IMG/VR virus record: IMGVR_UViG_3300050499_000294
Span: 98-64,097 of that record
Reading direction: 5' to 3' (one strand)
DNA from: a virus
Length of the DNA stretch: 64,000 nucleotides
Part shown: in pieces, positions 19,174 to 49,088 of the stretch
Layout: every line of letters begins with the position of its first letter
Numbering within the stretch: the stretch's first letter is position 1
Made by a program: the position numbers and the translations under genes
The notes under the pieces: generated by a model
Databases searched by the model: none
Told to the model about the DNA's origin: nothing
What the model saw: only the letters and a program-made list of their open reading frames with translations

Positions 19174-19240
19174 TACTTGGTGAACGCCTTGCTAGCGTTC
19201 GTCAAAAGTCTCGTGTACTCACTTGCATGGGAGCCAAGTA
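19174..19240 (+). promoter_or_regulatory. Three-way-junction RNA leader of HNH gene 2
   Basis: P1 TACTTGG/CCAAGTA, P2 GAACGC/GCGTTC, linker GTCAAAAGT, P3 CTCGTGTA/TGCATGGG; TATACT at 19161. Confidence 0.5.
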
Positions 19241-19269
19241 CTCACCTTTACCTCAGTGAGGAGGCCCCT

Positions 19270-19950
19270 ATGGAAACCCCTGTGCACAAAGTCTGTCGTG
19301 GATGCGATCTGCTGAAATCCCTCGATGAGTTTGGTATTGACAAGTACACCAGCGATGGCAAAGCTACGCGCTGTATCCTGTGTAAGCGCCAAGGAAGTCT
19401 GAGATATCGTACCCAGCATCCTGAGAAGGTGCGTGCAGCTGTCGCACGCTGGCAACGCGAGAATCCTGAGAAACGACATGCCTATGAACAGGCGCATAAA
19501 GCGGAAAAACAGGCGCGAGGCAAAGCTCACTACCGGCAAAACAAAGCTTTGATGAATGCCCAAAGTGCGGCGTATTATGCAGCGCACCGGATGGCCCTGC
19601 GCCAAAAGCATGCCGACTGGTACGCGGAGCATCCTGACTGGATACAGGCCAAAGCCGATCGCCGGCGTACCGCAATGACTACGAGCTCTACCAACGACTT
19701 GACCGCCGCACAGTGGGAAGAAATCAAAAGTGCCTACGGTCATCGGTGTGTCTATTGCCGTCGCAAGATGAAACGCCTGACCCAAGACCACCTTACCCCC
19801 ATCAGTAAGGGCGGCGCGCACACACTGGCGAATGTGGTTCCTGCCTGCCAATCCTGCAACTCCAAGAAACATGCGAAGGCGCCTCTCATTCCTGTCCAAC
19901 CCTTACTGCTGACACTCGCTCCAGCCAAACCCTACAACAAGAGGGCCTAG
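19270..19950 (+). CDS. HNH endonuclease (antisense insertion)
   Basis: CVYC...TQDHLTPISKGGAHTLANVVPACQSCNSKK; RBS GGAGG before ATG 19270. Confidence 0.9.
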   Translation: METPVHKVCRGCDLLKSLDEFGIDKYTSDGKATRCILCKRQGSLRYRTQHPEKVRAAVARWQRENPEKRHAYEQAHKAEKQARGKAHYRQNKALMNAQSAAYYAAHRMALRQKHADWYAEHPDWIQAKADRRRTAMTTSSTNDLTAAQWEEIKSAYGHRCVYCRRKMKRLTQDHLTPISKGGAHTLANVVPACQSCNSKKHAKAPLIPVQPLLLTLAPAKPYNKRA

Positions 19951-20603
19951 GCTAAGATAGGCGCTCCATCAAATTCAAACGTGACTTGCCCCGTCAGTGC
20001 CCCTGCGACCGGCGCCTGATCGCGCCAACCCGTGACCCAACCAGACATCCACCATGTAGTCTTCGTCGCATTAGGCAGTACGAGGAGGTACGGACGACGA
20101 ATGCGATTTTCCATGAGATAGAGGAGGCCGGTGACTTCATTGTGCGTGCCATGTTCAGGGACGTGGTTGAGGACTAACCGCATGCTGTTATTGGAAAGCA
20201 TCGTCGGGATTTGCGAGCCCCATCCACCGATCCCGTCGTGAGCACTTACGTTAATCACCGACGCCATGATGCCCGCGTCCTGGATGTCCGTCACTTCCGC
20301 AATCGTGGCATACGTACTATCGAGGGTGAATACCCCACCCGACGTGTAGGCCCCGGTCCCCACTGAGCCCCGGAGCCGGGCGGTCGTGGGCGTCACGGCC
20401 TCAGCAATCCAGGTTCCATTCGCCCCGGTATTCCCGGCAACGCTGGTGACGGTCACCTTGGAGACATCGACAATCCCATGGACGGCTGCGGTGGTCACGA
20501 CAATCGGCGTGGCGTTGGTGGCAGCGGTAATGTTCAAAACAGCTGGAATACCGTCCCCGAGGCGCAGGGCTATTCCAAATGCGCTTATGGCAAGGGTTGG
20601 CAT
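19947..20603 (-). CDS. Second tail tube paralog with inserted FCCH-like beta-domain
   Basis: INVSAHDGIGGWGSQIPTML...WMSGWVTGWRDQAPVAGALTGQVTFEFDG is homologous to 18686..19087, plus an insert of about 70 aa. Confidence 0.8.
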   Translation of the reverse strand: MPTLAISAFGIALRLGDGIPAVLNITAATNATPIVVTTAAVHGIVDVSKVTVTSVAGNTGANGTWIAEAVTPTTARLRGSVGTGAYTSGGVFTLDSTYATIAEVTDIQDAGIMASVINVSAHDGIGGWGSQIPTMLSNNSMRLVLNHVPEHGTHNEVTGLLYLMENRIRRPYLLVLPNATKTTWWMSGWVTGWRDQAPVAGALTGQVTFEFDGAPILA

Positions 20604-20606
20604 GTG

Positions 20607-20855
20607 CTAGGCCCCCGCAGGCGTCGGCTGGGCCGGTTCGGGCTCGTCATCGGGGGCGGGTTCGTCGTCCGGAGCGGGCTCAGGAGGCGGAAACGGCGAT
20701 GGGGGTTCTCCCGCCGCGATGGCTGCCTGCAAGCGGACACAGTGCGCAATGTGGGCATCCATCCGCGCTTGTAGCAGCGTATCGTAGCCACAGGCGGGAC
20801 AGCGGAATTGGATGAGACCGGACCAGGATTCGGAGCGGTAGGGGGCATCGTCCAT
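20607..20855 (-). CDS. Small CxxC protein with acidic Pro-rich tail
   Basis: FRCPACGYDT...HIAHC; RBS GGAGG. Confidence 0.55.
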   Translation of the reverse strand: MDDAPYRSESWSGLIQFRCPACGYDTLLQARMDAHIAHCVRLQAAIAAGEPPSPFPPPEPAPDDEPAPDDEPEPAQPTPAGA

Positions 20856-20874: not shown

Positions 20875-20929
20875 ACAAAACCGCCGACAGCGACGAAGCA
20901 AACCGGTTGCTTCGAAACTCTGCGGCGGT
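20875..20929 (-). terminator. Long hairpin followed by TTTTGT, downstream of the CRISPR mini-array
   Basis: ACCGCCG...CGGCGGT outer stem with GAAGC/GCTTC inner stem; short U-run on the minus strand. Confidence 0.4.
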
Positions 20930-20974
20930 ATGTGTTACCTGGAGGATGCCAGGCGACCAGTGACTACCGTAGGA

Positions 20975-21064
20975 TTCACTCCCCCCACCATCGTGGGGAA
21001 CAGCACACGTACAGACACAGCGTCAAGCCATGTATCGGGTCATCCCCACACACGTGGGGAAGGC
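20975..21064 (-). CRISPR. Type I-E-like mini-array: repeat - 32-nt spacer - degenerate repeat, no cas genes
   Basis: Minus-strand repeat GCCTTCCCCACGTGTGTGGGGATGACCCG (21064-21036, 29 nt), spacer 21035-21004, second repeat CTGTTCCCCACGATGGTGGGGGGAGTGAA; 61-nt period. Confidence 0.7.
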
Positions 21065-21150
21065 CACCCTCTCAGCACTGCCTCTCAAAAGATATCGTGA
21101 GCCTAGCATACCCCCATACAAATCACACGACTTTTTTAGTAGTGCTCATC

Positions 21151-21543
21151 TCAGACAACAAAGGCCATATTTTCCACCGCAAACTGGACCTGAAAGGCGT
21201 CATGGCGCGTCCCGCTATCCCAGGTCCAGCGAAATTGCGCGACGCGGTACTCCAGCGCCAACTCGGGATCCACCATCGCCGTATCAGCAGGTTGAATCTG
21301 CCATTCGATGGTCGTGACGGCAGGAGAGCCAGCCGTCGTCACACTCACATCATTGGCATTCAGGACATTCTGGGCATTACGGCTATTGACGATCGTGCCG
21401 CTAATCACATCATAGTACGTGAGCGTCAGGGTCGTGAGCATGGACACCGGCACGCCTTCGCCCACACTATCGACGAGCAGAAACGTAAGGAGGCCAGTCG
21501 TCGCTTCGAGCAAGGTCGTGGACAACAAGGGAATCGTCGGCAT
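21151..21543 (-). CDS. Hypothetical structural protein
   Basis: Co-oriented in the tail module, beta-rich. Confidence 0.6.
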   Translation of the reverse strand: MPTIPLLSTTLLEATTGLLTFLLVDSVGEGVPVSMLTTLTLTYYDVISGTIVNSRNAQNVLNANDVSVTTAGSPAVTTIEWQIQPADTAMVDPELALEYRVAQFRWTWDSGTRHDAFQVQFAVENMAFVV

Positions 21544-48940: not shown

Positions 48941-49000
48941 GACGACCCCGGAAAACGACCAGACGACCCACGGTAACGCCTGTGTATGTCCCTGAATAAC

Positions 49001-49066
49001 GCAGAGTGCGCCAGCCCCACGCTGGCGGAATGCGGCCCCGCACGGTGCGGGACGGTCACAAGCCCG
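49001..49066 (+). ncRNA. Twister ribozyme (P5-type permutation)
   Basis: GCA-GAGTG-P1(CGCCAGC/GCTGGCG)-G^AA-TGC-GGCC-P3-CGG-TCACAAGC-CCG; CAC/GTG pseudoknot complementary; predicted cleavage 49028/49029. Confidence 0.85.
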
Positions 49067-49088
49067 AACAACCAAGGAGACACGAACC

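Follow-up and report, generated by a model that had tools for sequence, protein, structure and literature searches.

Two type I-E-like CRISPR repeats enclosing a single spacer lie among the structural genes of an uncultivated phage, in a 64,000-nt stretch of DNA that was analysed as a whole and is referred to here as the window. This locus raises the question whether the repeats form a genuine CRISPR array and, if so, to what use a phage might put an array that stands alone, without cas genes beside it.

A repeat-spacer-repeat unit in the tail gene cluster of a rhizosphere siphovirus

The window belongs to a 64,380-nt IMG/VR virus entry that is labelled as a provirus and is approximately 70% complete. 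The minus strand holds nearly all genes between positions 750 and 54,000, and the repeats are found on the same strand, within the 295-nt intergenic gap that separates the genes of a 130-aa and an 82-aa protein (Table 1) and that we term the cassette. The 130-aa protein is a conserved phage protein without a Pfam or PHROG match. Upstream of the array lies the gene of a 1338-aa LamG tail protein, and the genes of the major tail protein, the tail tube protein and a 1364-aa tape measure protein are located downstream. Type I-E cas genes, searched for as Cas6e (PF08798) and Cas7e (PF09344), were not found in the 64-kb record, as far as this record, being about 70% complete, reaches; we therefore filed the element as an orphan mini-array and not as a CRISPR-Cas locus. 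The preliminary description of this DNA had likewise placed a cas-less array within the tail operon, and phage structural genes are indeed present on both sides. The record contains no gene for a tyrosine integrase or a serine recombinase, and no acr-like neighbour gene was recognised near the array. The metagenome runs containing the locus are from rhizosphere and soil, none of them RNA, and the carrier is an uncultivated rhizosphere siphovirus.

Table 1. Features of the array, its cassette and the neighbouring genes (positions in the window)
Feature	Position	Strand	Details
130-aa protein gene (upstream neighbour)	21151..21543	minus	32 metagenome homologues at E <= 1e-10
Promoter, predicted	21100..21137	minus	from sequence and from conservation of the motif among sister phages
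A6 tract of predicted promoter	21137-21132	minus	
-35-like GTGTGA	21128-21123	minus	followed by a 17-nt gap
Extended -10 TGC-TAGGCT	21108-21100	minus	
Leader	21065..21099	minus	predicted transcription start to repeat 1
Repeat 1	21064..21036	minus	GCCTTCCCCACGTGTGTGGGGATGACCCG; 29 nt, type I-E-like; read from sequence
Putative crRNA 5' handle	21043-21036	minus	AUGACCCG; last 8 nt of repeat 1
Spacer	21035..21004	minus	ATACATGGCTTGACGCTGTGTCTGTACGTGTG; 32 nt; read from sequence
Repeat 2 (terminal)	21003..20975	minus	CTGTTCCCCACGATGGTGGGGGGAGTGAA; 29 nt, last 8 nt degenerate
Putative crRNA 3' hairpin	21003-20983	minus	first 21 nt of repeat 2
Conserved 3' module	20929..20969	minus	18-mer CGGTAGTCACTGGTCGCC, hairpin P1 (20953-20938), linker TAACACATA
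Long G+C-rich hairpin and T run	20875..20928	minus	read as intrinsic terminator
82-aa protein gene (downstream neighbour)	20607..20855	minus	called in all related contigs
Major tail protein gene	19947..20603	minus	PHROG 584 and 158

The two repeats start 61 nt apart. They differ from each other outside the stem only, mainly in the last 8 nt of repeat 2, and each of them forms a hairpin of 7 bp closed by a 4-nt loop (-13.2 kcal/mol for repeat 1 and -13.3 kcal/mol for repeat 2). Type I-E arrays are characterised by repeats of 28-29 nt that form a G+C stem of 7 bp closed by a 4-nt loop and end in a 3' AUxxxCCG handle, by spacers of 32-33 nt and by a 61-nt period, and all of these properties were found here. 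Within the 64-kb window the core pattern of the repeat is confined to the array, with four strand-wise matches compared to 0.18 expected, a count that was reached by none of 100 shuffles.

In the type I-E system of E. coli, the Cas6e cut site lies before the last 8 nt of the repeat. The degenerate 8 nt of repeat 2 are situated past this point, so that a single crRNA of 61 nt carrying the handle AUGACCCG can be drawn; given the usual I-E cut position, it would be expected to extend from 21043 to 20983. The preliminary description had placed a 32-nt spacer between a 29-nt repeat and a degenerate second copy with an intact hairpin, and had proposed one mature crRNA with this handle. We recovered the same spacer letters and the same coordinates on the minus strand, the fold of repeat 2 agrees with an intact hairpin, and the crRNA can be derived as proposed from the predicted cleavage. 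Together, these properties support the structural reading of the locus as a type I-E-type repeat-spacer-repeat unit on the late-gene strand.

Two further features of the window lie outside the cassette. A match to the Rfam type-P5 twister ribozyme was found on the plus strand at 49000-49067 (44.9 bits, with a gathering score of 37.6), and an HNH endonuclease gene is positioned antisense between the major tail and tail tube genes (19177-19950, plus strand). In the related contigs L130, L131/L138 and L141 a late-strand gene replaces this HNH gene, and cassette and neighbour proteins are otherwise identical.

The array is embedded in a cassette with a predicted promoter, a conserved 3' module and a terminator-like hairpin

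The motif TGnTAGnnT of the predicted promoter keeps its position in all cassette types found among the sister phages described below, the empty ones included. Since a consensus promoter scanner made no call at this position, the cassette promoter is a prediction that rests on this conservation. From the stop codon of the 130-aa gene to repeat 1, the sequence is 87-88% identical to that of the sister contigs L143 and L146. Over 86 nt (21065-21150) its G+C content is 46.5%, compared to approximately 61% locally, as anticipated by the earlier mention of an AT-richer leader upstream of the array.

The 3' module follows in all sister cassettes, whether they contain repeats or none, and the pairing of its hairpin P1 is maintained through changes of U-A to C-G. 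The 18-mer CGGTAGTCACTGGTCGCC at the beginning of this module (20952-20969, minus strand) is invariant in seven cassette types, repeatless ones included, in which the flanking genes differ by 10-30%; the empty cassette of L144 and the composite cassette of L146 read GAGTCACTGGTCGCC at this place. The 18-mer could be a protein-binding or RNA element.

The long G+C-rich hairpin with its T run, which comes next, is likewise common to all cassette versions. The consensus fold contains five compensatory pairs overall, four of which belong to this long hairpin, the stable element of the centroid fold. A terminator scan gave a match at 20896-20880, within the hairpin and T run; a terminator-like hairpin downstream of the array had been noted before. 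We read this hairpin as an element that would end a short cassette transcript immediately ahead of the ribosome site of the 82-aa gene. Such a layout is reminiscent of the 6S RNA of phage lambda, a short constitutive transcript that stops ahead of the late genes.

The repeat shares its core with genuine type I-E arrays

To judge the likeness of the window repeat to those of known arrays, metagenomes were scanned with the 21-nt core of repeat 1. It is present as an exact copy in 59 metagenome loci, many of which are arrays of up to 80 repeats at a period of 61 nt. The window repeat matches the consensus of these genuine arrays, GTGTTCCCCACGTGTGTGGGGATGAACCG, in 26 of 29 positions. Because the core is that of genuine arrays and only 3 of 29 positions differ from their consensus, the likeness to type I-E is not coincidental. 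A coincidental match had been named beforehand as an outcome that would speak against a CRISPR origin, and the identity of the core with that of arrays of up to 80 units removes this concern. In a set of 13 repeats, comprising 12 phage-borne ones and one from a genuine array, the hairpin is paired in 98.9% of the cells, and one A-U pair is changed to G-C in five of them.

Other comparisons yielded no counterpart. The array stretch did not match any Rfam CRISPR repeat family, even at E values up to 10. The handle ATGACCCG was present in no genuine array among the 59 metagenome loci, a search of 800 genomes from two phyla gave no array with it, and the window leader did not match the leaders of the retrieved genuine arrays.

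Several metagenome loci with a single match, among them L088, L094 and L125, contain one exact copy of the core and no run of repeats. Such loci may represent variant arrays, or else additional solitary units carried by mobile elements. On an unrelated viral contig (L002:200-235, minus strand) a lone I-E repeat with the same 21-nt core is located directly after a gene with an integrase-like ending and is followed by a terminator-like hairpin, which makes it a candidate solitary repeat unit.

Sister phages carry different arrays, single units or no repeat at the same site

Sister phages were searched with two neighbouring proteins as queries, the major tail protein serving as anchor. This yielded about 15 IMG/VR contigs with a major tail protein 87-96% identical to that of the window and further contigs from JGI, ENA and Logan. 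The 295-nt cassette of the window is letter-identical in at least 13 contigs (JGI, ENA and Logan, from several samples), two of which are incomplete. These contigs include genomes that differ by the HNH gene beside the major tail gene.

Contents of other kinds were found at this site in the remaining sister phages. L004 and L005 carry a different 32-nt spacer with two intact I-E repeats, which are also of a different variant, L143 has three I-E repeats and two spacers, and L146 has five I-E repeats of mixed variants, three spacers and a truncated second copy of the 3' module. The array of L011 is built from an unrelated 37-nt repeat that ends in ATTGAAAC and is present four times, together with three spacers, and partial units of this 37-nt repeat with one spacer are present in L006, L008 and L018. 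Single repeat units occur directly after the same predicted promoter in two groups of contigs (L010, L012 and L013; L014-L016 and L019), and L026, L144 and L147 have the site without any repeat. Arrays with different spacers are thus located at the same position in L004/L005, L143, L146, L011 and L006. The spacers of L143 and L146 are 30-32 nt long and all differ from that of the window, and throughout the cassette family the spacers have no sequence in common. The reading as a mini-array, put forward in the preliminary description for the window only, is strengthened by the finding that this site carries further mini-arrays, with spacers of their own, in sister phages.

The distant sister L143 allowed conservation inside and outside the cassette to be compared. 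Its nucleotide identity to the window is 71% in the 130-aa gene, 81% in the 82-aa gene and 80.5% in the major tail gene, but 87% in the leader and 90% in the 3' module. The last repeat of L143 (1211-1239) is the homologue of the degenerate terminal repeat of the window, and a separate contig from a soil run independently contains the same extra unit as L143. As leader and 3' module are kept while the genes of L143 diverge and the spacers differ, we conclude that the cassette flanks are under constraint and that the spacers turn over.

In L146 the composite array (1679-1959) has the handles ATGACCCG, ATGCCCCG, ATGAACCG (twice) and ATGCACCC, and the truncated duplicate of the 3' module sits between repeats 4 and 5. 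A fourth spacer of L146 was considered and rejected, the stretch being the truncated module copy that stems from cassette fusion. L146 is a fusion of two cassettes and shows that cassettes fuse by recombination. The repeats within L143 differ from one another, as do those within L146; for these mixed arrays, judged from their sequences, assembly by recombination appears to fit better than stepwise adaptation.

The window spacer is confined to its own phage lineage, and a sister spacer matches the neighbouring gene of relatives

The window spacer has no match in the 64-kb window at up to 3 mismatches, and in a position-by-position scan against shuffled spacers its best partial matches were at the null level. 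Both searches agree with the earlier inspection by eye. Comparison with phages and plasmids, which the preliminary description had proposed as a check, revealed no protospacer: among 50,697 phage records and 72,556 plasmids only chance hits of 20 nt were obtained (E = 9). The spacer was also without a match in five sister records and in the collected sister and metagenome loci, without a protospacer in IMG/VR (exact 24-mer, and a pattern left free at every sixth base) and in JGI metagenomes, and no match was retrieved among cas-flanked metagenome arrays. It was seen only in its own phage lineage, identical in each of the contigs that share the cassette. The six other I-E spacers of the family have no target in the sequences collected for this analysis, and a search of IMG/VR with the spacers of L004 and L006 returned only their own arrays.

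A target was found for spacer 2 of L011 (33 nt), which matches the ribosome site and the start of the 82-aa gene of sister phages, at a distance of at most about 100 nt from the cassette. In L010, L012 and L013 the first 29 of 33 nt match, with three mismatches that are all near the far end. L026, L014 and L147 have five mismatches and the window has nine, and in the genome of L011 itself the match is limited to 15 nt. Spacers of archaeal virus mini-arrays match array-adjacent genes of close relatives and not those of the carrier (Medvedeva et al. 2019, PMC6858448). The same spacer pattern is cited there for phage mini-arrays, and the reason for the proximity is left unexplained.

Indications of the host

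The window contains no host flanks. A scan of species genomes returned distant domain-level matches and no close prophage, cultured phage relatives were not found, and a protein atlas contained viral clusters only. The genuine arrays with the same core are from sludge, digester and sediment samples, and none of their 1,217 spacers matches the phage family.

Three sister contigs (L154:10373-20351, L155 and L156) continue past window position 1 with a P-type conjugation gene set comprising TraG/VirD4, VirB4/TrbE, TrbL, VirB8, CagX/VirB9, TrbI/VirB10 and an S26 peptidase. It is located directly after tail-fibre genes, a beta-helix protein and a GH9 cellulase, its gene order is identical in the three contigs, and a marker gene of the set is present in 14 contigs. 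TraG is at most 49% and TrbE about 32% identical to proteins of known plasmids. This arrangement represents either a prophage beside a transfer region or a phage-conjugative hybrid. The VirB9- and VirB10-like genes in the sister contigs indicate a host with an outer membrane.

Possible functions of the cassette RNA

The repeat anatomy, the core shared with genuine arrays and the sister arrays identify the locus as a genuine Cas-less type I-E mini-CRISPR in what would be a dedicated small-RNA cassette, in the order predicted promoter, leader, repeat, spacer, terminal repeat, hairpin module and putative terminator. As to its function, we favour a mini-array that would provide the type I-E system of the host with one crRNA against competing elements, and on the sequence evidence at hand we assign this reading a probability of about 0.5. 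According to this model, the cassette would be transcribed on the late-gene strand, and Cas6e of the host would cut at the 3' base of each repeat hairpin. The crRNA of 61 nt released in this way would consist of AUGACCCG, the 32-nt spacer and the 21-nt hairpin. Loaded with it, host Cascade together with Cas3 would be directed at a competing mobile element bearing the protospacer, and the competitor would be kept out of cells occupied by the phage. The turnover of spacers at the site and the match of spacer 2 of L011 to sister phages speak for this reading. Against it stand the lack of a protospacer for the window spacer and for the six other I-E spacers in the collections covered, the lack of the handle ATGACCCG in genuine arrays among the loci and genomes searched, and the mixed repeats within L143 and L146.

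Alternatively, the cassette RNA may act as an anti-CRISPR and disarm the host I-E system instead of using it, which is the main rival reading and which we consider less likely. This could occur in two forms. The repeat could sequester Cas6e and Cas7 as a decoy or competitor, similar to a Racr, or the transcript could be a crRNA-like regulator similar to a Cracr, whose spacer pairs in part with a host cas promoter and shuts it down. The single units behind the same predicted promoter in L010, L012 and L013 and in L014-L016 and L019 have the anatomy of the solitary units shown to be Racrs, and a non-targeting crRNA also lowers interference by competition (PMC10651486). Moreover, the mixed repeat variants in L143 and L146 resemble multiplexed Cracr arrays, and the lack of a protospacer in the mobile-element collections fits a spacer that is host-directed or without target. 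However, the unit in the window is complete, with repeat, spacer and repeat, and is not solitary; its spacer has the canonical 32 nt, compared to 21 and 24 nt in the tested I-E Cracrs. A family of spacers without common sequence would also be unexpected if one conserved promoter were the target, and the neighbourhood of the array lacks a recognised acr-like gene. Borrowing of the host machinery and anti-CRISPR activity are compatible with each other, so that one role does not exclude the other. Repression directed at a promoter, which the preliminary description had raised because the spacer contains TTGACG, is a further possible role.

It is also conceivable that the array is an inert relic, that is, a piece of a host array that was gained by recombination and is carried without function. 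Rearrangement of cassettes by recombination is evident from L146, three sister contigs (L026, L144 and L147) have no repeats at the site, and repeat 2 of the window is degenerate. The degenerate part is, however, restricted to the nucleotides past the predicted cut site, as in the terminal repeats of working arrays, and both hairpins are intact. Furthermore, no variation of the cassette was seen among at least 13 contigs, whereas adjacent DNA varies between lineages, conservation is higher in its leader and 3' module than in the genes on either side, and two unrelated repeat types have been kept at one site by independent lineages. In view of these conservation data, we regard a relic as unlikely.

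Another idea, which we consider a long shot, is that the cassette is a homing element guided by CRISPR, the spacers of which would target the allele adjoining the cassette site in sister phages. In a co-infection, host Cas proteins would cut the rival genome at this place, and repair from the resident genome would copy the cassette in. Homing would explain why the protospacer of L011 spacer 2 lies within about 100 nt of the cassette, similar to the proximity reported for archaeal mini-arrays (PMC6858448), and it would account for the variety of cassettes at one site of near-identical phages, including the fused cassette of L146.

Finally, a chance pair of palindromes that merely resembles CRISPR repeats, to which the failure to match an Rfam CRISPR repeat family at E values up to 10 might have pointed, is excluded by the shuffles, the 21-nt identity with genuine array repeats, the exact 61-nt spacing and the homologous arrays in sister phages.

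Comparison with known systems

With the ends of chromosomal I-E arrays, the window unit shares repeat length, hairpin, handle, spacer length and a terminal repeat that is degenerate at its 3' end. Unlike orphan or terminal parts of such arrays, it lies among phage structural genes, contains a single spacer, and has its own predicted promoter and terminator as well as a leader that is unlike those of the retrieved arrays.

Two groups of RNA anti-CRISPRs offer a second comparison. Racrs are solitary repeat units, for which I-E examples exist (Camara-Wilpert et al. 2023, PMC10651486). The window resembles them in that a phage carries a repeat mimic downstream of a predicted promoter of its own and no cas genes. 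In contrast to a Racr, which is a single unit without spacer or second repeat, it possesses a full spacer and a second repeat and would be able to yield a normal crRNA, and no acr gene was recognised nearby; the Racr form is matched by the single-unit cassettes of sister phages such as L010 and L014. Phage I-E Cracr arrays have been described with 2-3 units aimed at different host variants, and the casA promoter is silenced by crRNA-like regulators of such phage I-E arrays (Liu et al., bioRxiv 10.1101/2024.10.29.618823). Cas-less I-E-type units in a phage, one degenerate repeat-like unit and the mixed variants in sister arrays are Cracr-like. The 32-nt spacer of the window differs from the 21-24 nt of the tested Cracrs.

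A third comparison is offered by virus-borne mini-arrays, such as those of the Sulfolobus viruses SPV1 and SPV2 and of phages and prophages (PMC6858448), which have also been modelled (PMC7099407). They have one or two spacers, no cas genes, an intergenic site in a viral genome and a promoter-bearing leader in front, and relatives carry arrays with other spacers at the same position. The window corresponds to this description as an IMG/VR virus record in which one spacer is flanked by structural genes and Cas6e and Cas7e were not found, and its family does so with respect to the arrays of relatives. L011 additionally shares the property that a spacer targets the neighbouring gene of close relatives and not the own genome. 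Unlike in the Sulfolobus viruses, the host of the window phage is bacterial and the repeat is of type I-E, and the window spacer is without a related-virus target in the collections searched. A further difference lies in the site itself, which forms a bounded cassette, has a conserved RNA module and a predicted terminator on its downstream side, and holds two unrelated repeat types in close relatives.

Cas-less viral mini-arrays are already known, and there are few bacterial cases with a family-wide picture. The added interest of this one is a single bounded cassette site which, across a phage family, is occupied by units of either of two CRISPR types or stands empty. The family therefore constitutes a natural series with which it can be asked whether such RNAs arm a phage against its rivals or disarm its host, and how phages and hosts exchange repeat units. 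Its repeat types, at the same time, provide a handle for finding the host.
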